Origin: an uncultured virus (IMG/VR IMGVR_UViG_3300046007_010127)
Taxonomy: Duplodnaviria > Heunggongvirae > Uroviricota > Caudoviricetes
DNA length: 63,706 bases
Reading direction: 5' to 3' (one strand)
Virus record (IMG/VR): IMGVR_UViG_3300046007_010127
Shown: positions 3,159 to 52,681 of the stretch, in pieces
Layout: each line of letters starts with the position of its first letter
Position numbering within the stretch: the stretch's first letter is position 1
Translations under genes and position numbers: made by a program
The notes under the pieces: model-generated
The model's input: only the letters and a program-made list of their open reading frames with translations
Database searches by the model: none
What the model was told of the DNA's origin: nothing

Positions 3159-3196
3159 TATATTTGTGAAACAAAACAAAAGGAACGATATATAAC
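3159..3196 (+). promoter_or_regulatory. Stacked promoters of tRNA operon 1
   Basis: TATATTTG (3159, Bacteroidota -7 type), GAAAC (3168) with TATAAC (3191), and GATATATA (3187). Confidence 0.55.
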
Positions 3197-3202
3197 AGAT
3201 AT

Positions 3203-3277
3203 ATGAAAAATCTAAACAACATATTACCTATATCATTAAGACCGTCGATAAGACGATCTCTAAAGGTCCTGTGTTAG
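3203..3277 (+). CDS. Leader peptide 1 (MKNLNNILPISLRPSIRRSLKVLC) of the tRNA operon 1 attenuator
   Basis: 24-codon ORF rich in ATA/TTA/TCN/AGA/CCN codons; last codons contain the antiterminator taaaggtcctg (3261-3271). Confidence 0.75.
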   Translation: MKNLNNILPISLRPSIRRSLKVLC

Positions 3278-3297
3278 TTTTCAATATATACTAAACT

Positions 3298-3332
3298 AAA
3301 AAACCGGGACCTTTAAAAGTCCCGGTTTTTTT
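3298..3332 (+). terminator. Attenuator terminator 1
   Basis: ccgggac/gtcccgg stem plus T7; 3305-3315 is complementary to 3261-3271. Confidence 0.85.
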
Positions 3333-3333
3333 A

Positions 3334-3345
3334 TGTTCTTTGAAA
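3334..3345 (+). promoter_or_regulatory. boxA-like antitermination site
   Basis: TGTTCTTTGAAA, resembling rrn boxA; found at the same position in all three tRNA operons. Confidence 0.65.
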
Positions 3346-3350
3346 TAATT

Positions 3351-3439
3351 GGAGAGGTGGCAGAGTTGGTTTAATGCACCTGTCTTGAAAACAGACGTAG
3401 TGAAAGTTACCGGGGGTTCGAATCCCTCCCTCTCCGCCA
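3351..3439 (+). tRNA. tRNA-Ser(TGA)
   Basis: Cloverleaf, loop CTTGAAA, long variable arm, encoded CCA. Confidence 0.95.
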
Positions 3440-3442
3440 ATT

Positions 3443-3516
3443 GGTCCGATAGCTCAGCTGGATAGAGCAACTGCCTTCTAAGCAGTAGGTCGCAGGTTCG
3501 AATCCTGCTCGGATCA
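3443..3516 (+). tRNA. tRNA-Arg(TCT)
   Basis: Cloverleaf, anticodon arm ACTGC-CTTCTAA-GCAGT. Confidence 0.95.
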
Positions 3517-3522
3517 CTATAT

Positions 3523-3598
3523 CGGGATGTAGATCAGTTGGTAGATCGCCTGGTTTGGGACCAGGAGGCCCCAGGTTCGAGTCCTGGTATCCCGACCA
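3523..3598 (+). tRNA. tRNA-Pro(TGG)
   Basis: Cloverleaf, CCTGG-TTTGGGA-CCAGG, encoded CCA. Confidence 0.95.
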
Positions 3599-3599
3599 T

Positions 3600-3673
3600 A
3601 GAGATGTAGCTCAATTGGTTAGAGCACATGCCTTATACGCATGCGGTCACGAGTTCGACTCTCGTCGTCTCTA
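3600..3673 (+). tRNA. tRNA-Ile(TAT)
   Basis: Cloverleaf, CATGC-CTTATAC-GCATG. Confidence 0.85.
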
Positions 3674-3677
3674 CTTA

Positions 3678-3751
3678 GGTCCCTTAGCTCAGTAGGTTAG
3701 AGCAACTGACTCATAATCAGTAGGTCCACGGTTCGAGCCCGTGAGGGACCA
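3678..3751 (+). tRNA. tRNA-CAT, probably Ile2 (lysidine type)
   Basis: Cloverleaf, ACTGA-CTCATAA-TCAGT; GGTCCCT acceptor resembles bacterial Ile2 rather than Met. Confidence 0.8.
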
Positions 3752-3766
3752 CAAAATTAATAATCT

Positions 3767-3847
3767 GCCTGGGTGGTGAAATTGGTAGACACGTTCGGCT
3801 TAAGATCGAATGCGAAATGCGTGAGGGTTCGAGTCCCTCCTCGGGTA
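3767..3847 (+). tRNA. tRNA-Leu(TAA)
   Basis: Type II cloverleaf, TTCGG-CTTAAGA-TCGAA. Confidence 0.9.
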
Positions 3848-3852
3848 CATAT

Positions 3853-3955
3853 ATAAGAGTGGCGGAAGCGAGATCATTTATGATCCGATGGAGAGACGCT
3901 AGGGTGTCATGCCCGAGAACGAAAGTTCATGTTGGTTCAAGTCCAACCTCTTGTA
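3853..3955 (+). ncRNA. Atypical tRNA-like RNA (D-loop hairpin insertion, non-canonical anticodon arm)
   Basis: Acceptor ATAAGAG/CTCTTGT, T-arm GTTGG-TTCAAGT-CCAAC, variable arm GAAC-GAAA-GTTC, extra GATCA-TTTA-TGATC hairpin. Confidence 0.6.
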
Positions 3956-3974
3956 CTTTTTTAATTATAAATAA

Positions 3975-4262
3975 CTATACAGTTAATTTTTCTACCTTAG
4001 CTACTGAATATTTTTTACCCTCTCCGTAATTTCCTCCAGGTGTTTCATTTAAAGTAACTTTAAAATAGTAACCTGAAACTGAATTACTTTTAATAGAGTA
4101 AACAAGATCAGACTTTTGAGTTACTGAATCTATTGATTGCATACCCATTTTAGATGCAACAGTATCGCTAGAAATTATTGATTTTATTTTTTCTGCTGTA
4201 GAATAAAAAGGCGCAGCAGCCTCATTCATTATTTCGTTTTTAAAATCTTCGAATCTTTTCAT
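3975..4262 (-). CDS. Hypothetical protein (MKRFEDFKNE N-terminus)
   Basis: ORF in a two-gene minus-strand unit. Confidence 0.65.
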   Translation of the reverse strand: MKRFEDFKNEIMNEAAAPFYSTAEKIKSIISSDTVASKMGMQSIDSVTQKSDLVYSIKSNSVSGYYFKVTLNETPGGNYGEGKKYSVAKVEKLTV

Positions 4263-4275
4263 TTCTTATTATATT

Positions 4276-4827
4276 TTACTTAGCCTCTTTAATTCTGAAG
4301 TATCCTCGGTGATCGGTTTTACCTGGTTCTACACCATCTTCGAATTTACAATATCCAGTAGAATTAAAGAAGTTCCATTCTTCTCTTCTGCCTTTACTAA
4401 GTTTATCCTGTGGCATTAAAGATCTATTATATTCTTGATTTTCTTGGTTAATTCTCTTATACATTCCATTATAAAATGTAGATGTGCTAAGTAAATTCGT
4501 AGCTTCTTCCATTAATCTTCTATTGATATTATAGTCAAATATAGCCTCATGAATAGAAATCTCTGAAATGCCTCTTCTATAGCTAATCCATTGCGATATA
4601 ATTCCACCATAATTATATGGTGTATAAGCTAAATCCCCTACGTAAAAAAGATTAAAATATGGAGAATTCTCTTTGCTGTGATCGAACAACCTTATGTTAG
4701 TATTAAAATATGGTACAGTTCCTCCGAATTCTTTCATTCTATTATGGAATCCAGGAAGTATCTCTAATGTTATCGATGTGGGATTATTATTTGTATCAAA
4801 TCCTTCGAATAGCTTAATATGTTTCAT
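4276..4827 (-). CDS. Hypothetical protein (MKHIKLFEGF N-terminus)
   Basis: ORF with minus-strand GATATATA at 4832-4839. Confidence 0.7.
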   Translation of the reverse strand: MKHIKLFEGFDTNNNPTSITLEILPGFHNRMKEFGGTVPYFNTNIRLFDHSKENSPYFNLFYVGDLAYTPYNYGGIISQWISYRRGISEISIHEAIFDYNINRRLMEEATNLLSTSTFYNGMYKRINQENQEYNRSLMPQDKLSKGRREEWNFFNSTGYCKFEDGVEPGKTDHRGYFRIKEAK

Positions 4828-8110: not shown

Positions 8111-8188
8111 ATGCAACAATTTCTAAATATCGGAATAGATGCTCAGCTCGATCTTCTTGAGGATATTGGAAAGTGTCAGAGGAAATAA
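8111..8188 (+). CDS. Leader peptide 2 (MQQFLNIGIDAQLDLLEDIGKCQRK) of the tRNA operon 2 attenuator
   Basis: 25-codon ORF with a GAT/CTN/GAG block; antiterminator tgtcagagg (8174-8182) in the last codons. Confidence 0.72.
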   Translation: MQQFLNIGIDAQLDLLEDIGKCQRK

Positions 8189-8209
8189 ATTTATATAAAG
8201 ATACAATTT

Positions 8210-8238
8210 AAACCTCTGATAACCTCAGAGGTTTTTTT
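8210..8238 (+). terminator. Attenuator terminator 2
   Basis: aaacctctga-taacc-tcagaggttt plus T-run; 8213-8221 is complementary to 8174-8182. Confidence 0.85.
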
Positions 8239-8247
8239 GTTTTTATA

Positions 8248-8259
8248 TGTTCTTTGAAA
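8248..8259 (+). promoter_or_regulatory. boxA-like antitermination site
   Basis: TGTTCTTTGAAA, identical to 3334-3345. Confidence 0.65.
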
Positions 8260-8263
8260 TTAT

Positions 8264-8335
8264 GGTCGGTTCATCTAGGGGTCAGGATACAAGGTTTTCA
8301 TCCTTGTCACACGGGTTCGAATCCCGTACCGACTA
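8264..8335 (+). tRNA. tRNA-Glu(TTC)
   Basis: Cloverleaf, CAAGG-TTTTCAT-CCTTG. Confidence 0.92.
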
Positions 8336-8336
8336 C

Positions 8337-8404
8337 AAAGGGGGAAAATAGTTAGAAGGGCCTTTCCTGAAAGATGGCACGCTAGGCCCGTATTTGAACC
8401 CTTT
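8337..8404 (+). ncRNA. Candidate small structured RNA between tRNA-Glu and tRNA-Asp
   Basis: Nested stems aaaggg/cccttt, aaata/tattt and gggcct/aggccc. Confidence 0.35.
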
Positions 8405-8410
8405 AATTTA

Positions 8411-8484
8411 GGTCCGTTAGTAGAGTTGGTCACAACGCCGCCCTGTCACGGCGGAGGTCATGGGTTCGAATCCCATACGGACCG
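8411..8484 (+). tRNA. tRNA-Asp(GTC)
   Basis: Cloverleaf, CCGCC-CTGTCAC-GGCGG. Confidence 0.95.
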
Positions 8485-8491
8485 CAAACAT

Positions 8492-8564
<73 letters not shown>

Positions 8565-8568
8565 CTAA

Positions 8569-8649
8569 GCCCAGGTGGTGAAATGGTATACACGCTAGTC
8601 TTAGGAACTAGTGACGTAAGTCGTGAGGGTTCGAGTCCCTCCCTGGGTA
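8569..8649 (+). tRNA. tRNA-Leu(TAG)
   Basis: Type II cloverleaf, CTAGT-CTTAGGA-ACTAG. Confidence 0.93.
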
Positions 8650-8651
8650 CT

Positions 8652-9290: not shown

Positions 9291-9668
9291 ATGGAAAATG
9301 AAAAATTAAAAAGAGTTACTATGAGGGTATCTCACGAAAATCCTGATGCACAGGTAAATTTCACAGCTATTGGTATCGGAAAGAATCAAAAAGAAGCAGC
9401 TATTTTTGCTTTGGGATCTTTCCTAAATGTTATGAATGGTGTAAGTGATGAAGGGGTATCAGATTACAATGAAGCTTTGGAAATGGTTAACGACCAATAT
9501 TCGGAGGAGGAAGTGAGTTTTTTTATCGAGAAAAAATTAGAAGCAAATGCTGATGCTTTCTTCAATGCTTACGAATCAACTAAAGTGGATTATGTTTGGG
9601 ACGAGGTAGAAGGAGAAGAATCAATAGGATTAATCCAAGAAATGGAAGTAGTAGAGGAAAAATATTAA
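9291..9668 (+). CDS. Acidic hypothetical protein
   Basis: ORF. Confidence 0.7.
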   Translation: MENEKLKRVTMRVSHENPDAQVNFTAIGIGKNQKEAAIFALGSFLNVMNGVSDEGVSDYNEALEMVNDQYSEEEVSFFIEKKLEANADAFFNAYESTKVDYVWDEVEGEESIGLIQEMEVVEEKY

Positions 9669-9708
9669 AAAATATCGGAAATCATTTTTTTATTTAAAAA
9701 AGATATTG

Positions 9709-9746
9709 TACTTTTACGAAACTATTCTGGAAACAGGATATATAAT
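9709..9746 (+). promoter_or_regulatory. Stacked promoters of tRNA operon 3
   Basis: TACTTTTA (9709), GAAAC (9718) with TATAAT (9741), and GATATATA (9737). Confidence 0.5.
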
Positions 9747-9754
9747 TAAGAAAA

Positions 9755-9862
9755 ATGAAAAACTGTAGTAAACATAACATCATTCGCATGAACAGTCAGA
9801 TTAATGGCTGCTATCAAACGGTGGCGTTTTGGGCTAAGGGGAAAGAACCCGATCGAAGCTAA
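9755..9862 (+). CDS. Leader peptide 3 (MKNCSKHNIIRMNSQINGCYQTVAFWAKGKEPDRS) of the tRNA operon 3 attenuator
   Basis: 35-codon ORF with codons for all ten downstream anticodons; antiterminator gatcgaagct (9851-9860). Confidence 0.75.
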   Translation: MKNCSKHNIIRMNSQINGCYQTVAFWAKGKEPDRS

Positions 9863-9890
9863 TACAGAAAATCATATTTAGATATTTTGG

Positions 9891-9922
9891 AAAAGGCTTT
9901 GATTAACTTCAAAGCCTTTTTT
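9891..9922 (+). terminator. Attenuator terminator 3
   Basis: aaaaggctttga-ttaact-tcaaagcctttt; 9895-9904 can pair with 9851-9860. Confidence 0.85.
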
Positions 9923-9925
9923 ATT

Positions 9926-9937
9926 TGTTCTTTGACA
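9926..9937 (+). promoter_or_regulatory. boxA-like antitermination site
   Basis: TGTTCTTTGACA. Confidence 0.65.
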
Positions 9938-9950
9938 TACTGGAAAAAAT

Positions 9951-10023
9951 GGTACCGTAGCTCAGTTGGTAGAGCACTAGACTGAAAATCTAGGTGTCGC
10001 CGGTTCGATTCCGGCCGGTACCA
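9951..10023 (+). tRNA. tRNA-Phe(GAA)
   Basis: Cloverleaf, CTAGA-CTGAAAA-TCTAG. Confidence 0.95.
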
Positions 10024-10094
10024 CAATACTAAACAAGAAATTGTCACACTAAACTAATCATGTTTAGTATTACAAAAACAAGTTTAGTAAAAAT

Positions 10095-10168
10095 GATCTC
10101 GTAGCTCAGTTGGCTAGAGCACCTCACTTTTAATGAGGGAGTCGAGGGTTCGAGCCCCTCCGGGATCA
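10095..10168 (+). tRNA. tRNA-Lys(TTT)
   Basis: Cloverleaf, CCTCA-CTTTTAA-TGAGG. Confidence 0.95.
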
Positions 10169-10169
10169 C

Positions 10170-10306
10170 AAAGGTTGATTGGGGAAAGATGATGCCCATA
10201 ACATGAGAGTGTATATCGGTTGGTGTCATTGGAGTTGGGAGATATACACCTAAGTAAAGCCAATCGTAAAAGAGAATGTCCACGCAACCATCTTTCTCTT
10301 TCCTTT
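10170..10306 (+). ncRNA. Candidate ~137-nt structured RNA between tRNA-Lys and tRNA-Trp
   Basis: Stems aaagg/ccttt, ggggaaagatg/catctttctct and gtgtatatc/gatatacac. Confidence 0.5.
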
Positions 10307-10310
10307 AAAT

Positions 10311-10383
10311 GCGTCCTTAGCTCAATTGGTAGAGTGTTGGTCTCCAAAACCAAAGGTTGTAGGTTCGATCCCTACAGGGCGTG
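10311..10383 (+). tRNA. tRNA-Trp(CCA)
   Basis: Cloverleaf, TTGGT-CTCCAAA-ACCAA. Confidence 0.93.
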
Positions 10384-10390
10384 CTAAAAA

Positions 10391-10463
10391 GGTCCCGTAG
10401 TTCAATGGATTAGAATGGAACACTACGGATGTTCTGATCCTGGTTCGAGTCCAGGCGGGATCT
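10391..10463 (+). tRNA. tRNA-Arg(ACG)
   Basis: Cloverleaf, GAACA-CTACGGA-TGTTC. Confidence 0.93.
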
Positions 10464-10474
10464 CAAACAAATAA

Positions 10475-10545
10475 GGTCGTGTGGTCGAGTGGTTAGGCGC
10501 TAGTCTGCAAAACTAGTTATACTGGTTCGATTCCAGTCACGACCT
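10475..10545 (+). tRNA. tRNA-Cys(GCA)
   Basis: Cloverleaf, CTAGT-CTGCAAA-ACTAG. Confidence 0.93.
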
Positions 10546-10565
10546 CTAAAAAATAAAAAGTGCAT

Positions 10566-10697
10566 ATGGATAAAAGAGTTATAGTAAAAGGAAGTTTTGA
10601 TTCAAGTAGAGAAAATTTAAGAAGAGAGGGAATTAGCTTTACAATTAGTAAAGCCTTTCTCAAAAAAATTAAAAGAATACTTAAAAGAGGAAAGTAA
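10566..10697 (+). CDS. Possible small basic protein (43 aa) inside the tRNA array
   Basis: ATG after an A-rich stretch; MDKRVIVKGSFDSSRENLRREG...KRGK; stop overlaps the tRNA-Ser 5' end. Confidence 0.35.
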   Translation: MDKRVIVKGSFDSSRENLRREGISFTISKAFLKKIKRILKRGK

Positions 10698-10774
10698 TCC
10701 TGGATGGTGATGGGGCTCGCCTGCTAAGCGAAGTGTACCTTAATTGGTATCTGGTTCGATTCCAGTTCTTTCCG
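10689..10774 (+). tRNA. tRNA-Ser(GCT), atypical D arm
   Basis: CTCGC-CTGCTAA-GCGAA, variable arm TACC/GGTA, T-loop TTCGATT, acceptor GGAAAG/CTTTCC. Confidence 0.75.
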
Positions 10775-10780
10775 CAACAT

Positions 10781-10857
10781 TGACATGTAGCTCAGTTGGT
10801 TAGAGCGTTGATCTGATACGTCAAAGGCCGAAGGTTCGAATCCTTCTATGTCAACCA
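10781..10857 (+). tRNA. tRNA-Ile(GAT)
   Basis: Cloverleaf, TTGAT-CTGATAC-GTCAA, encoded CCA. Confidence 0.9.
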
Positions 10858-10863
10858 TTATTT

Positions 10864-10939
10864 AGTCTCTTAGCTCAGCTGGTAGAGCGTCTGCCTTACA
10901 TGCAGAATGCCGGGGGTTCGATTCCCCTCTGTCACCCCA
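10864..10939 (+). pseudogene. Chimeric tRNA-Val(TAC) with an unpaired acceptor stem (His-like 3' end)
   Basis: D, anticodon and T arms intact; 5' AGTCTCT cannot pair with 3' CTGTCAC-C-CCA. Confidence 0.7.
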
Positions 10940-10949
10940 TTTTATATAA

Positions 10950-11029
10950 GCCGATGTGGCTCAGTGGCGACAGCACCGCTTTTGTACAGCGGTATACAAA
11001 CATCGGGGGTTCGAGTCCCTCCATCGGCT
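10950..11029 (+). tRNA. tRNA-Thr(TGT), enlarged variable region
   Basis: Acceptor GCCGATG/CATCGGC, CCGCT-TTTGTAC-AGCGG, 12-nt variable segment. Confidence 0.85.
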
Positions 11030-11035
11030 CTATAT

Positions 11036-11108
11036 TGTCCTGTAGTGTAATTGGCAACACGTCTGATTTTGGTTCAGAAGACTCCAGGTTCGAGCCCTGG
11101 CGGGACAA
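11036..11108 (+). tRNA. tRNA-Gln(TTG)
   Basis: Cloverleaf, TCTGA-TTTTGGT-TCAGA. Confidence 0.92.
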
Positions 11109-11161
11109 CTTATTTTATGAAATAAAAAAAAAGATCTACAATATAAATAATAAAACATAAT

Positions 11162-12289
11162 ATGAAGAATGATATATGCTTGGTAATGATCGTAAAGGAT
11201 GAGGAAGAAGTTATTACCAGATGTTTAAATTCGGTTTGTTCTATTATAGATTATTGGGTAATAGTTGATACTGGGTCTGAAGATAATACTAAAGAAGTTA
11301 TTAGGGATTTTATGGAGGAGAAAAATATCCCCGGAGAATTATATGATAGAAAATGGGTAGATTTTTCTTATAATAGAAACGAAAGTTTAGAATTAGCAAA
11401 TGGTAAATGTAATTACATGCTAATAATGGATGCGGACGATCTATTGGAAATATCTGATTATTCTAAATTCAACAATTTATCTCTTCATTCTTATAATATA
11501 CCTATTTTATTGGACGGGTTAGAATATAAAAGATTGCAGATATTAAAATCCGGGTACGAATGGAAATATGAAGGGGTATTACACGAATACATAAAAATAC
11601 CCGATATAGAAAATTATACGGAGGGTATTATAGAGGGATCATGTATAATAGCAAATGCTAGCTATCCTGAAGGGCATCCAAAATACCTAGGAGATGGCGA
11701 ACTTTTAATGAGATTCATAGATGATCCAGAAATATCGGAGGATCTTAAAAGAAGGTATACTTTCTATTGTGGATTAAGTTTTATGTGGGGAAGAGATTTT
11801 AATAAAGCAATAGAGATCTTTAAGAAAAGATCAGAAATTGGTGGATGGCCGGAAGAAATATACGTTTCTCTGTGGTATCTAGCAAAATTAAAAGAAAAAA
11901 TGGGAGATGATGAAGATTCTATAATTAACTCGTATTTAAAAGCATGGGAATCTAGACCAGGGAGACACGAAGCAGCATACGATCTTCTTAAATTTATTTA
12001 TCCAAAAAAAAGATGGTATCTAGGATTTATTATAGCTAGATCATGTATATCTTCTAGCGGATTAAACGATTCACTATTCGTTGATAAAAATATAAGAGAT
12101 TGGGGGATTTATAATATTTATTCTCAATATGCTTACAATTGCGGATTTATAACTGAAGCTATAGGTGCGACCGAGAGATTAATAAATTCTAGTTCTTTTA
12201 ATATTATCCCGGATGATGAACAGAAAAAAATAATAAATAACTTAGAAGTATATGAAATTAGTTTAATACAAAGCTATACTCATATATAA
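11162..12289 (+). CDS. GT2 glycosyltransferase with TPR-like C-terminus
   Basis: CLVMIVKDEE, IVDTGSED, DFSYNRN, MDADD and GVLHE motifs. Confidence 0.88.
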   Translation: MKNDICLVMIVKDEEEVITRCLNSVCSIIDYWVIVDTGSEDNTKEVIRDFMEEKNIPGELYDRKWVDFSYNRNESLELANGKCNYMLIMDADDLLEISDYSKFNNLSLHSYNIPILLDGLEYKRLQILKSGYEWKYEGVLHEYIKIPDIENYTEGIIEGSCIIANASYPEGHPKYLGDGELLMRFIDDPEISEDLKRRYTFYCGLSFMWGRDFNKAIEIFKKRSEIGGWPEEIYVSLWYLAKLKEKMGDDEDSIINSYLKAWESRPGRHEAAYDLLKFIYPKKRWYLGFIIARSCISSSGLNDSLFVDKNIRDWGIYNIYSQYAYNCGFITEAIGATERLINSSSFNIIPDDEQKKIINNLEVYEISLIQSYTHI

Positions 12290-48810: not shown

Positions 48811-49403
48811 TAGATCCATTTAAAAAAAGATTTGAAGAATATAAACTTTCTATATCCGGACTTTCCTCACCACAGGAAGAATCTTTCATGTTTTGGTTTA
48901 ATAAATTCGTAAATAAAAACTCCCAATTCAATCCTCTAGATTTTTTATCAGGGAAAGTTTATTCGTTTGAATACAACGATAAACTAGAAGGAGGTAAGAA
49001 ATTTATAAATAAAAGACCTGTCGTGTTTTTTACAGGATACGACAACTATGAGAGAAAAAATATATTTAGCGGATTAGATCTAATACTAATACCACCTATT
49101 TTCAGAATGTATTTTTTTGAAAGAGTACAAAGCGTTTTCCAAGATCAGATTGAAAGAAATATAAGAAAAGATGAAAATGGGGAGGGAAGAGATCAATCTC
49201 CTTTAAAAACTGATTATCAAATAATGGAGTCCATATTAAAAGGAATCCCATATAAGCACTCATATAGATCTTGGGATTTAAAAAAAGTTAGGGGCGTTGT
49301 GGAAATTCCTTTTGAAGATTGGACTAGAATAGTATATCTTGATACTAGGTCAATTGAAGGGACCCAGCTTATTGAGATATATAATAAAAATTCACAAGTC
49401 TAA
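48807..49403 (+). CDS. DNA end protector (T4 gp2-like)
   Basis: GKVYSFEY, PVVF, GLDLILIPPIFR; next to gp4. Confidence 0.55.
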   Translation: MIDPFKKRFEEYKLSISGLSSPQEESFMFWFNKFVNKNSQFNPLDFLSGKVYSFEYNDKLEGGKKFINKRPVVFFTGYDNYERKNIFSGLDLILIPPIFRMYFFERVQSVFQDQIERNIRKDENGEGRDQSPLKTDYQIMESILKGIPYKHSYRSWDLKKVRGVVEIPFEDWTRIVYLDTRSIEGTQLIEIYNKNSQV

Positions 49404-51022
49404 TGGCTGGATTGACCGACGAAAAAAAATCTTTTTTTAGCTCTATTATAGAGAACATAAAGAAAGTGGGCAGTTTTGGAATGGCATACGAAGATCTTGT
49501 CGTGAAAAACTCCCAGGCAGTTGGTATTACTGAAGCACAATTTCTACAAAAAGGAGGCATAAAAGACGAAGCTTTCTTATTTGGATTAAGGAGAGCAGAT
49601 ACAACAACCAAGCAATACATAGCTTATTTTGATAAGGACTATAAAAACAAAAGACATTATCTTCAAGGATTTGCACAAAATCCCGAAATAGAGTTTATCT
49701 TAGATACTATATGTGACGAAACAATAGTTTACGACGAAAAGAATTTCTGGGCTTATTTCTCATTCATGCAACACGATGATGTAGATGAGGCGGCATATGA
49801 GAAAGTACAGAAAAGATACAAAGAGGTCTATAACCTGTTCGGATTTAATCAGGATATATCAGCATGGCATTTATTCAGAAAATTCCTAGTTGATGGTAAT
49901 ATAGCTTTTGAAATTGTATTTGATAAGAAGGGTAAAAATATAGTAGGATTTAAGGAATTAGATCCTTGGTCTTTAATTCCAACGGTAGAAGCACAACCAG
50001 ATGGGTCATTTGCAGATATCTGGATACAGTATCCGGATAATCCTGCACTTACTAGAAAGCTTTACGATTCTCAGATTATCTATATAAGTTACGCTAAAGG
50101 AGGCGGTACTGCAGCTAGAGTTAGCTATTGCGAAAGAATGATAAGATCATTTAACCTTCTTAGGATTATGGAGCACACTCGTATTATATGGAACGTTATG
50201 AACTCCTCATACAGGATGGCAATGACAGTTCCAATAGGTACTAGATCCCCGCAAAAAGCAAAACAAACGCTGGGTGAACTTATGTCAATATACAAAGAAG
50301 ATATAAGATTAGATACAGATAGTGGAGAATTAAGTGTAGACGGAAGACCTAAGATACAATTCTTTAAAAACTATCTAATGCCATCATCCCCTAATGGTAC
50401 ACCAGATATACAACCTTTACCTGGTGGTGGTGATGCTACAGCATTCTCCGACACAACAGTACTTAAGTATTTTGCTAATAAACTTAGAATGGACTCTAAG
50501 ATACCTGCTACCAGATTCGGAAGAGAAGAATCCGGATCTGAGGGTACAATTACATTTACTGCGGAGGGTCTAGACCAAGAGGAAATAAGATTTGCTAAAT
50601 TTATAAACAGATTAAGATCAATATACCAGGAGATATTAATGAAGCCTCTTTGGGTTCAGTTCTGTTTAGATTTTCCACACCTTAAAAAAGATTATATTAT
50701 TAAATCTGAATTTGGTCTCGATTATGTTAAGGAAAATATATTTAGAGAGGCTAAAGAGATGGAGGTAATGACTGCGAGAAAGGATCAGGTGATTAAAATA
50801 TCTGCTCTTATGAATTCGGCAGGCAAAAAATACTTCAGTATGGATTTCTTAGTTGATAGATTCCTAGGCATGAAAGGACAGGATCTAGTAGCTAATAAGA
50901 AAGCAAAAGAAAAAGCTGCAGAAGAGAAGAAGAAAGCAGAAGAGGCTGCTGGAGCTACAGGAGAAGCAGGAGCTACAGGGGAAGAAGGCGGAGCAGCTGG
51001 TGGAGACATGGGAGAAATTTAA
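49403..51022 (+). CDS. gp20: Portal protein (gp20-like), copy 1
   Basis: PEIEFILDTICDE, FLVDG, ELDP, NLLRIME, KIPATRF and EEIRFAKFINRLR motifs. Confidence 0.85.
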   Translation: MAGLTDEKKSFFSSIIENIKKVGSFGMAYEDLVVKNSQAVGITEAQFLQKGGIKDEAFLFGLRRADTTTKQYIAYFDKDYKNKRHYLQGFAQNPEIEFILDTICDETIVYDEKNFWAYFSFMQHDDVDEAAYEKVQKRYKEVYNLFGFNQDISAWHLFRKFLVDGNIAFEIVFDKKGKNIVGFKELDPWSLIPTVEAQPDGSFADIWIQYPDNPALTRKLYDSQIIYISYAKGGGTAARVSYCERMIRSFNLLRIMEHTRIIWNVMNSSYRMAMTVPIGTRSPQKAKQTLGELMSIYKEDIRLDTDSGELSVDGRPKIQFFKNYLMPSSPNGTPDIQPLPGGGDATAFSDTTVLKYFANKLRMDSKIPATRFGREESGSEGTITFTAEGLDQEEIRFAKFINRLRSIYQEILMKPLWVQFCLDFPHLKKDYIIKSEFGLDYVKENIFREAKEMEVMTARKDQVIKISALMNSAGKKYFSMDFLVDRFLGMKGQDLVANKKAKEKAAEEKKKAEEAAGATGEAGATGEEGGAAGGDMGEI

Positions 51023-51028
51023 TAGATA

Positions 51029-52681
51029 ATGGCAGGATTTTTAGATAACTTAGGAAAAATTAACCCAAATATCTCCAGGATATTAAAGACCATTAGTGGT
51101 CTAGGGTCATTTGGTATGGAATACAAAGATATGGTCATAGAAGATTCCATGGCTATAGGTGTTTCAGAAGCTAACATGAGAGAAAGATTCGGATTTACTG
51201 AATCTGATGAAGATTTTATCTATAGCATAGCCGCTCAGGATACTTCCAATAGAAAGTACATAGCTTATTTTGATAAGGATTACCCGTTTAAAAGAGATTT
51301 TCTTAGAACATTTGCTTTAAACTCCGAGATAGAGTATATTTTAGATACTATATGCGACGAGGCAGTAGTTTATGACGAGAAGAATTTCTTTTGTCATCCA
51401 GCTCTAATGAGCATGGATCTAAAGGACGATGTTGTAAAGTCAATGAGATCCAATTTTAGAAAATTATATGTTCTACACAACTTTGCAAACGGTCTTACTG
51501 CTTGGCAATATTTTAGACAATTAATTGTCGAAGGATTTTTAGCTTTCGAGATAATATACTCGAACGACGGTAAAGAGATCGTTGGATTCAAAGAACTTGA
51601 TGCGGTAAGTTTAACTCCCGCAGTAGAGAGAAAGCCAGACGGTACAAGAGAAACTATATGGTGGCAATATTACGGAGAAACAACCAGACAAAGAAAACTT
51701 TTAGATGCACAGGTTATTTATATCTCTTACGCTAAAGCTAATGTTGTTTCAAGGGTTTCTTATACAGAAAGATTAATAAGATCATACAACTTATTAAAGA
51801 TAATGGAGCATTCGAGAATAATATGGAATGTCATGAATGCCCAATATAGAATAAAAATGACAGTTCCTATCGGAAGTAAAGCTCCACAAAAAGCCAAAGA
51901 GACTTTAGGAGAGCTAATGTCAGTATATAAGGAGGATATAAAATTAGATACCACATCAGGTGAGCTTTCTATAAACGGTAGACCCGATATACAATTTTAT
52001 AAGAATTATCTTTTTCCTCAACAAGGAGGAGAATCAGTAAAGATAGAAACATTAAATGCTCAAGGTCCTAACCTTAATATAATGGATTCTGTTGTTTATT
52101 TCTATAATAAACTAAGACAGGATTCAAAGATACCTTACAATAGATTCTCATCTCGATTTGGTGTTGGATCTAATAACGTTTTTAAAACTGCTGCTGATGG
52201 AGCAGAAAGAGACGAAGTTAGATTTGCTAAGTTTATAACACGACTTAGATCTATATTCCAGGAAATAATAGTTAAGCCACTATGGATTCAGATGTGTCTA
52301 GAATTTCCCGAACTTAAAAATGACGCTGAATTTAGAAGCCAAATAGGAGTTAAATTCGAAAGTGATAATATGTTCGGTGAATCTAGAGAGATCGAACAGT
52401 TAATAAAGAAAATAGATTTCATAACAGCAATGGGAGAAATAAAAGAAACTGTAAAGGAGGAAGAGGTTCAATATTTCGATCAGGACTTTATGATAGAAAG
52501 ATGGCTGGATTTAAATTATGAAGATATTCAGCTTAACAAATCCTATATTAGAAAAGCCGAGGAGGAAGGTAAATCCGGAGCAACAGGAGCAACAGGAGCA
52601 ACAGGAGCAGAGGCCGGAGGAGCTGAAGCTGGAGCAGCAACAGGAGCTGAAGGCGAAGGAGCAACAGGAGCGGCAGTTTAG
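51029..52681 (+). CDS. gp20: Portal protein (gp20-like), copy 2
   Basis: Full-length paralog; RDEVRFAKFITRLR motif. Confidence 0.85.
   Translation: MAGFLDNLGKINPNISRILKTISGLGSFGMEYKDMVIEDSMAIGVSEANMRERFGFTESDEDFIYSIAAQDTSNRKYIAYFDKDYPFKRDFLRTFALNSEIEYILDTICDEAVVYDEKNFFCHPALMSMDLKDDVVKSMRSNFRKLYVLHNFANGLTAWQYFRQLIVEGFLAFEIIYSNDGKEIVGFKELDAVSLTPAVERKPDGTRETIWWQYYGETTRQRKLLDAQVIYISYAKANVVSRVSYTERLIRSYNLLKIMEHSRIIWNVMNAQYRIKMTVPIGSKAPQKAKETLGELMSVYKEDIKLDTTSGELSINGRPDIQFYKNYLFPQQGGESVKIETLNAQGPNLNIMDSVVYFYNKLRQDSKIPYNRFSSRFGVGSNNVFKTAADGAERDEVRFAKFITRLRSIFQEIIVKPLWIQMCLEFPELKNDAEFRSQIGVKFESDNMFGESREIEQLIKKIDFITAMGEIKETVKEEEVQYFDQDFMIERWLDLNYEDIQLNKSYIRKAEEEGKSGATGATGATGAEAGGAEAGAATGAEGEGATGAAV

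Follow-up and report, generated by a model that had tools for sequence, protein, structure and literature searches.

Leader-peptide attenuators of amino-acid operons include those of trp and his and the multivalent ones of thr and ilvGMEDA. The pheST (pheM) attenuator acts on phenylalanyl-tRNA synthetase and provides feedback on part of the decoding apparatus. T-box riboswitches bind uncharged tRNA directly by way of one specifier codon, and no open reading frame (ORF) is needed. According to the accessible part of the source (PMC3082878), pheL-pheA combines a short ORF, cognate codons, 1:2, 2:3 and 3:4 helices, a terminator and a switch set by ribosome position, all of which have observed or predicted counterparts at the locus described here.

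A long spare tRNA operon that is turned on under translation stress is known from the Anabaena trn array (PMC8421152, PMC10272220; both available in part), which our locus would resemble in this respect. There, however, a protein repressor, TrcR, is in control and regulation is not codon-specific (PMC8421152); in the available portion of that main text none of the strings 'attenuat', 'leader' and 'terminator' appears. Phage tRNAs have been described as a counter to host tRNA depletion, and whether they serve codon compensation or oppose host tRNA destruction is described as a long-open question in the available text of PMC10264068. The main texts of PMC10264068 and PMC7162821, as far as available, contain neither 'attenuat' nor 'leader' and no inducible codon-gated control. 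The full-text literature, as a corpus that mostly excludes subscription papers, yielded no account of tRNA genes controlled by attenuation.

From sequence and folding models, the control of a phage tRNA operon, here called operon 3, appears to work like a leader-peptide attenuator lying outside the described amino-acid leader families. An Rfam scan gave no leader-family match at the gathering threshold or at E ≤ 1, and no T-box match at E ≤ 1 in 9650-11200. Compared with the attenuators of amino-acid operons, the phage-borne system has tRNA genes rather than enzymes as its output, names 16 codon classes mostly by single codons where those leaders repeat the codons for one or two amino acids, resolves the isoacceptor box, and divides the code among three switches. 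It likewise differs from pheST (pheM), where one amino acid and its synthetase are concerned, in acting on tRNA molecules of many specificities. With T-boxes it would share terminator/antiterminator control tied to tRNA supply through a codon.

The window, by which we mean the whole stretch of 63,706 nucleotides that was analysed, comes from the genome of a huge T4-like phage, with genes for a terminase, a tail sheath, a clamp loader, a UvsX-like recombinase and two portal proteins. Among 50,697 phage records, its best terminase matches are uncultured phages of 462-642 kb (33-37% identity), and near-identical DNA is present in lake and freshwater runs. The nearest record (G001, 38.6 kb) lacks the tRNA region and gave no tRNA match. 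The two portal paralogues lie in tandem (49403-52681), and an RNA-binding protein gene (phrog_850, 18-773), whose product we take to be Ro/TROVE-like, is found upstream of the tRNA region. From TAnnTTTG-like boxes and scarce Shine-Dalgarno-like words, the latter ahead of only 2 of the 55 window ORFs, we infer that the host belongs to the Bacteroidota. In this phylum, according to the accessible part of PMC9723704, the sigma-A −7 consensus is TAnnTTTG and Shine-Dalgarno sequences are lacking; the same source calls leader-peptide attenuation likely in Flavobacterium.

The region ahead of operon 3 contains the following elements:

9709-9716, plus strand: element resembling the sigma-A −7 box of Bacteroidota, the presumed host phylum, with one mismatch to TAnnTTTG, 46 nt upstream of the leader ATG
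9737-9744, plus strand: GATATATA motif ahead of leader 3, candidate phage late promoter
9755-9862, plus strand: leader ORF of 35 codons; the 11 relatives in the alignment share its start codon, reading frame and stop codon
9758-9838, plus strand: predicted sensing zone, codons 2-28, with limits taken from ribosome-footprint folding
9826-9859, plus strand: early 1:2 hairpin, with a predicted probability of 0.5-0.9 before the terminator arm emerges
9851-9860, plus strand: antiterminator arm, pairing with 9895-9904 over 10 bp, 3 of them G-U
9865-9889, plus strand: bridging hairpin predicted by folding, bringing the antiterminator arms together
9895-9922, plus strand: intrinsic terminator before the first tRNA gene, with an 8-bp core (9895-9916) and a U tract (9917-9922)
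9927-9935, plus strand: 9-mer downstream of terminator 3 that we take to be boxA-like

TAnnTTTG-like boxes lie 39-46 nt upstream of all three leaders in the window, and an exact TAnnTTTG was present within 75 nt of the leader in 7 of 12 relatives examined. The GATATATA motif has 18 copies in the window (for example at 3187, 9737, 49376 and 57728), 16 of which have an ATG ORF within 60 nt, at a distance of 12-29 nt to the ATG; the genes concerned include portal and tail-fibre genes as well as leaders 1 and 3, where the motif stands in tandem with the host-type −7 box. We consider it a candidate late promoter. A sigma-70 scan was uninformative (32 sites versus 29 expected). The 9-mer recurs identically after all three window terminators and after most of those in close relatives.

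The leader ORF is conserved between the promoter-like elements and the first tRNA gene. In the alignment of 11 relatives, indels inside the ORF measure 3 nt and those after the stop codon 1-2 nt, and mean column identity over leader 3 is 89%. An overlapping ORF in the +1 frame (9804-9881) was rejected as the leader, being absent from L004, L009 and L022. The leader 3 pattern was not found in 185,579 GTDB genomes, a result that bears on this pattern and not on unrelated cellular leaders. In one RNA run (X15, from a single study), a 176-nt contig of a relative spans the leader and the terminator loop at a depth of 6.5; such a contig carries no information on ends, strand or level.

Pairing of the terminator core is kept in 88 of 88 cells across the 11 aligned sequences, with one compensatory pair (U-A in five, C-G in six). 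The antiterminator pairing, which formed part of the original observation and was recovered here, is kept in 109 of 110 cells; its changes are one-sided only and include no compensatory pair. The leader-terminator region folds at z −3.25, and 2 of 200 shuffles were equally stable. Both arms of the 1:2 hairpin are near-invariant in alignment A1, and a hairpin equivalent to 9865-9889 is predicted in L009, L022, L004 and L012. When folding was followed by transcript length, the 1:2 hairpin appeared first; a role as polymerase pause or protector is possible. With RNA exposed up to 9904, the predicted probability of the antiterminator is ∼1.0 with a ribosome at codon 28 or earlier, 0.5 with a ribosome at codon 30 and 0 from codon 33 onward; with no ribosome it is also ∼1.0 before the 3′ arm of the terminator emerges. 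With RNA exposed up to 9916, it is 0.7-0.9 for a ribosome at codons 22-28 and 0.1-0.5 for one at codons 5-19 or for none. The antiterminator is thus lost from codons 30-33, which places the Glu, Pro and Asp codons at 31-33 outside the sensing zone; that these three occur only at the leader end had been stated originally and is correct. On full-length RNA at equilibrium the terminator always wins, so that the switch must be kinetic. Folding strongly supports read-through for stalls at codons 22-28; sensing at early codons would need a kinetically trapped antiterminator, and the purity of these codons suggests that such sensing occurs. In silico, the antiterminator is mutually exclusive with the terminator and lies beneath the ribosome footprint.

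Codon content was assessed in 24 classes, that is, amino acids with Ser, Arg, Leu and Ile split by codon box. All 27 codons of the zone fall within the 16 classes decoded by the full operon 3, against a background share of 0.61, and all 16 classes are present. None of the 27 belongs to the classes of operons 1 and 2, which make up 39% of background codons. Under strict wobble 25 of 27 codons match (background 0.49, p 1.9e-6); the other two, GGC and GCT, can be read by Gly(UCC) and Ala(UGC) only through extended wobble. The isoacceptor match originally proposed therefore stands at the level of codon boxes and not for these two as strict anticodon matches. All eight Ser, Arg and Ile codons of leader 3 come from the operon's own box (AGY, CGN and ATY), which account for 24%, 10% and 45% of phage usage within these amino acids, respectively. 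When 34 codons were drawn at random at window usage, 161 of 200,000 trials covered the ten array classes and 5 of 200,000 covered every one of the 16 full-operon classes. As proposed, the leader holds codons for the ten array anticodons and none for Leu, but only nine of the array tRNAs are intact. The original caveat that only the isoacceptor match is discriminating was too modest, for the purity of the zone and the permutation across families given below discriminate as well.

The same composition, complete for the 16 classes and with no foreign codon before the last six, was found in all 13 relatives tested and in 37 of 38 loci carrying the leader pattern (one cut). This trim of six codons was picked post hoc and was replaced by the structure-defined zone; untrimmed values are also reported. 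In L009 and L022, Thr, Met and Val codons have shifted and two codons are deleted in frame, with all 16 classes retained, indicating that composition is conserved rather than the peptide.

Downstream of terminator 3, the array is composed as follows:

9951-10024, plus strand: tRNA-Phe(GAA)
10095-10169, plus strand: tRNA-Lys(UUU)
10311-10384, plus strand: tRNA-Trp(CCA)
10391-10464, plus strand: tRNA-Arg(ACG)
10475-10546, plus strand: tRNA-Cys(GCA)
10689-10775, plus strand: atypical tRNA-Ser(GCU), found by ARAGORN at a relaxed threshold only; long-arm tRNA match with E 3.6e-06; present in relatives
10781-10857, plus strand: tRNA-Ile(GAU)
10864-10939, plus strand: chimeric pseudo-tRNA, 5′ part of Val(UAC) and 3′ end of His, acceptor stem unpaired
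10911-10921, plus strand: 11-nt repeat at the deletion joint, from alignment to L002
10950-11030, plus strand: tRNA-Thr(UGU)
11036-11109, plus strand: tRNA-Gln(UUG)

Nine of the ten array genes are intact, eight of them detected by ARAGORN at default settings, and Rfam matches the chimeric 'Val' over model positions 8-63 only. Between tRNA-Cys and tRNA-Ser (about 10566-10697) lies an ORF for a basic protein of 43 amino acids with conserved motifs, present in 8 of 10 loci checked, the window included. The spacers 10024-10095 and 10180-10310 are hairpin-forming and are present or absent among relatives. A weak Y-RNA-like Rfam match within the array (10725-10840, E 0.39) is probably due to chance.

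Compared with L002, which shares the leader and whose identity to the window is 97.6% on one side and 99.1% on the other, the window has undergone a deletion of 565 nt between 11-nt repeats, one in the T-arm of the Val tRNA gene and one in that of the His tRNA gene. This deletion removed the tRNAs for Asn, Tyr, Gly, Ala and His together with an elongator-type CAT tRNA, and broke that for Val. The joint (3950 to 4516 in long-form numbering) is present in runs X3, at a depth of 46.7 (local depth 42-46), and X5, at a depth of 85 (local depth 78-86), two lake studies that perhaps belong to one campaign and perhaps include the window's own. In the contigs that span the joint, the shorter flank measures 115 and 42 letters, the shared repeat being only 11 letters long. 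Since the joint occurs in public contigs at the local depth of the phage, the deletion is real DNA, and the deleted form is dominant in the X3 and X5 samples. The joint pattern had 0 matches in IMG/VR, a set from which the window's own genome may have been withheld, and contigs of run X1, a possible source of L002, tile the undeleted long form. The nine intact tRNAs of the window's operon 3 serve only 16 of the 27 zone codons; 10 of the 27, and Val in addition, now require tRNAs missing from the operon's output. As the leader is identical to that of L002, the fact that it was kept is explained by the deletion being recent and provides no evidence of selection.

A search with the neighbouring dehydrogenase retrieved 66 loci, of which the 24 closest were examined. 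Thirteen carry this leader, and 11 of these hold the Asn, Tyr, Gly, Ala, His and CAT tRNAs between Val and Thr. A search by leader start gave 38 loci (15 viral, 23 from metagenomes), 12 of them cut by a contig or locus end; relatives found via the leader pattern are close kin and are not independent. Among the 26 loci readable to tRNA-Gln, several of which represent the same contig or strain, 20 have all six tRNAs, one lacks Gly only and five have none. The original prediction, that operon 3 of relatives would carry tRNAs for Asn, His, elongator Met, Gly, Tyr and Ala, was thus borne out for six of six and in the expected place, and the contrary case, relatives that share the leader and never carry these tRNAs, is contradicted by the 20 loci. 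A separate operon for the six, which would have counted against the prediction, was found neither in G041 (207 kb, 81% complete), with 11 tRNA matches that all lie in the operon 1/2 region, nor in G002, whose 26 tRNA matches are all accounted for by its three operons. The window was also correctly said to lack an elongator Met tRNA, as its CAT tRNAs are Ile2-like (3678-3752) and initiator-like (8492-8565). The deleted CAT tRNA of operon 3 is presumably of the elongator type, by exclusion and from its features; a search against E. coli tRNAs did not resolve its class. The leader is intact in the strains that lost many tRNAs (5 of 26 loci), so there is no fast co-evolution.

In assembled contigs, erosion of operon 3 with the leader kept appears to recur in L120, L121, L140, L141, L147 and L153. 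The tRNA-to-tRNA joints are Ile/His, Val/Thr, Ile/Thr, Phe/Trp and Gly/Ala and mostly remove the Asn-His block, which in contigs of L121/L140, L147/L153 and L120 is absent with other joints.

Two sister units precede operon 3 in the window:

3203-3848, plus strand: sister unit 1, with leader 3203-3277, terminator 3298-3331 and tRNAs Ser(UGA), Arg(UCU), Pro(UGG), Ile(UAU), Ile2-like(CAU) and Leu(UAA)
8111-8650, plus strand: sister unit 2, with leader 8111-8188, terminator 8210-8234 and tRNAs Glu, Asp, initiator-type Met and Leu(UAG)

The zone of leader 1 covers 5 of its 5 own classes, with 5 of 15 codons foreign and an antiterminator duplex of −19.1 kcal/mol; that of leader 2 covers 3 of 3, with 9 of 16 codons foreign and a duplex of −14.1 kcal/mol. 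Between them, the three operons in their full form account for each of the 24 classes just once (5 + 3 + 16). The CAT tRNA of unit 1 is nearest to E. coli tRNA-Ile (81%), and that of unit 2 we take to be an initiator from its features.

Several further observations concern these units. In L017/L019 (2345-3499), operon 1 is without tRNA-Pro and tRNA-Ser, and its leader has no Pro codon and keeps its Ser codons; in L006 the operon 1 leader has lost its ATG. The Glu, Asp and initiator tRNA alleles differ between the window (8264-8565) and L002 (1303-1605), strains otherwise 98% identical, pointing to tRNA allele exchange. A degenerate tRNA-like element, detected at a relaxed threshold only, follows operon 1 (3853-3960).

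The match between leaders and operons was next evaluated across the collected loci, which contain 165 tRNA units. Eighty-eight are headed by a terminator, and 82 of these have a leader as called by a fixed rule that takes no account of the tRNAs present, compared with 18% when the upstream DNA was shuffled. The 77 units without a terminator by the rule used, some of them cut or split, the six terminator units without a leader and duplicates (reducing 82 leaders to 57) were left out of the family tests. The 57 distinct leaders fall into 22 families, which differ in how the code is partitioned; coarser clusterings over-merged them (16 and 9 groups), and tests with 9 and with 22 families are both reported. 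As these phages are related, the families are not fully independent. Over the 22 families, the share of own-operon codons is 0.49 versus 0.27 ± 0.02 after permutation (0/20,000). The leaders contain 100 of the 104 amino acids of their own operons (null mean 65, maximum 84), and the isoacceptor box matches in 66 of 84 cases, against 44.6 expected. Sixteen of the 22 families are significant alone and six are not; some units fit poorly, such as the Leu/Pro unit of L009 and L087. The own-operon match also holds with the 9 coarser families. Pairing is favoured between the end of a leader and the terminator arm of its own unit (−12.6 versus −7.0 kcal/mol, 0/20,000), and cognate codons make up 212 of 340 before the footprint limit and 73 of 210 within or after it.

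The closest terminase matches of the window are huge-phage records, a group known for its tRNA sets (PMC7162821, as far as available); three of these records carry leader-terminator units and a fourth does so in one unit. Units of LR745206, LR756502, LR756504 and LR756500 are among the 22 leader families. Named huge-phage records (L068, L069, L096-L105, L115) have many narrow leader-terminator-tRNA units, for Gln only, Pro/Asp, Glu/Tyr, Arg/Ser or His/Phe/Trp/Lys, some with repeated tRNA genes, and the leaders of narrow operons (the Gln-only, Arg/Ser and Glu/Tyr units) are narrow. Among cultured phages, the tRNA array of PAU has no terminator-leader unit, and PTm1 and MaF61 gave no tRNA match, and blastn against INPHARED returned single-tRNA matches only.

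Taken together, the comparative and folding evidence supports the attenuator reading with which the analysis began, and we consider it highly probable that a ribosome-mediated transcription attenuator gates operon 3 as a negative feedback on tRNA supply. Translation of the leader, the direction and size of the regulation and its trigger are what we infer. A host ribosome would translate the 35 codons behind the polymerase and, at codons 2-28, sample the 16 classes decoded by the full operon 3 and nothing else. If all codons are read fast, the ribosome would cover the antiterminator arm from codon 30 onward, the terminator would form and transcription would stop at 9917-9922. A shortage of any of those tRNAs, through cleavage, degradation or lack of charging, would make the ribosome lag, so that 9851-9860 would pair with 9895-9904 and the tRNA genes would be transcribed. 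Control of initiation may act as an additional layer. The two sister switches would act likewise for the other 8 codon classes. Possible triggers are host tRNA loss during infection, amino-acid starvation or a general slow-down; countering host tRNA depletion is the likely purpose of the control. In the window strain, six tRNA genes appear to have been lost and a seventh broken by a recent deletion at an 11-nt microhomology, and the leader, being unchanged, would still sense codons that operon 3 no longer serves. For the clade as a whole, we lean slightly towards a homeostat in which three operons split the code, each leader polls its own classes with single-codon sensitivity and only the depleted block is refilled; leaders would be rewritten upon repartition, would record lost tRNAs and would list the tRNAs threatened by host defence.

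Leader 3 uses 19 amino acids, as might be expected of a broad amino-acid probe that reports translation rate in general, for instance under host shut-off, antibiotics or starvation, and that is not tuned to the tRNAs of its operon. Any slow-down, or no translation at all, should favour the antiterminator, given its predicted probability of ∼1.0 with no ribosome before the 3′ arm emerges, and general translation stress induces the Anabaena array (available parts of PMC8421152 and PMC10272220). Such a probe is nevertheless unlikely in view of the complete absence of operon 1 and 2 codons from the zone, the matching isoacceptor boxes and the narrow leaders of narrow operons. The switch may respond to general stress as well, and to this extent a general sensor and tRNA-tuned attenuation overlap.

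The column identity of the leader would equally suit a conserved RNA or a functional small peptide; whether the ORF encodes such a peptide or is untranslated, the terminator would then be relieved at a set point in infection by a protein or by antitermination of the boxA type, as the 9-mer after each terminator might suggest. Lying downstream of the terminator, however, the 9-mer is unable to prevent that termination; Thr, Met and Val codons move with composition held, other operons are preceded in this position by unrelated peptides that match the tRNAs of the respective operon, and the end of each ORF pairs with the terminator arm of its unit, which makes this explanation very unlikely. That tRNA arrays are repetitive and that no IMG/VR contig holds the joint could point to an assembly artefact behind the six-tRNA gap, yet the joint appears in two studies at the local phage depth and X1 tiles the long form. 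A codon match by chance is likewise opposed by the permutation over 22 families and the five complete covers in 200,000 draws, and either of these two accounts is extremely improbable.

Tuned attenuation of operon 3 would bring tRNA genes, in addition to enzymes, under this mode of control and would widen its input from one or two amino acids to as many as 16 codon classes. A blind, falsifiable prediction came true at this locus, in that the six tRNAs read off the leader were then shown to be deleted from that very operon, and the deleted and full strains provide a natural pair for asking what these six tRNAs do. If the reading is true, each leader would be a ready reporter of the tRNAs that become limiting during infection, and tRNA blocks that stay off unless decoding of their own codons slows would argue that these phages supply tRNAs on demand.
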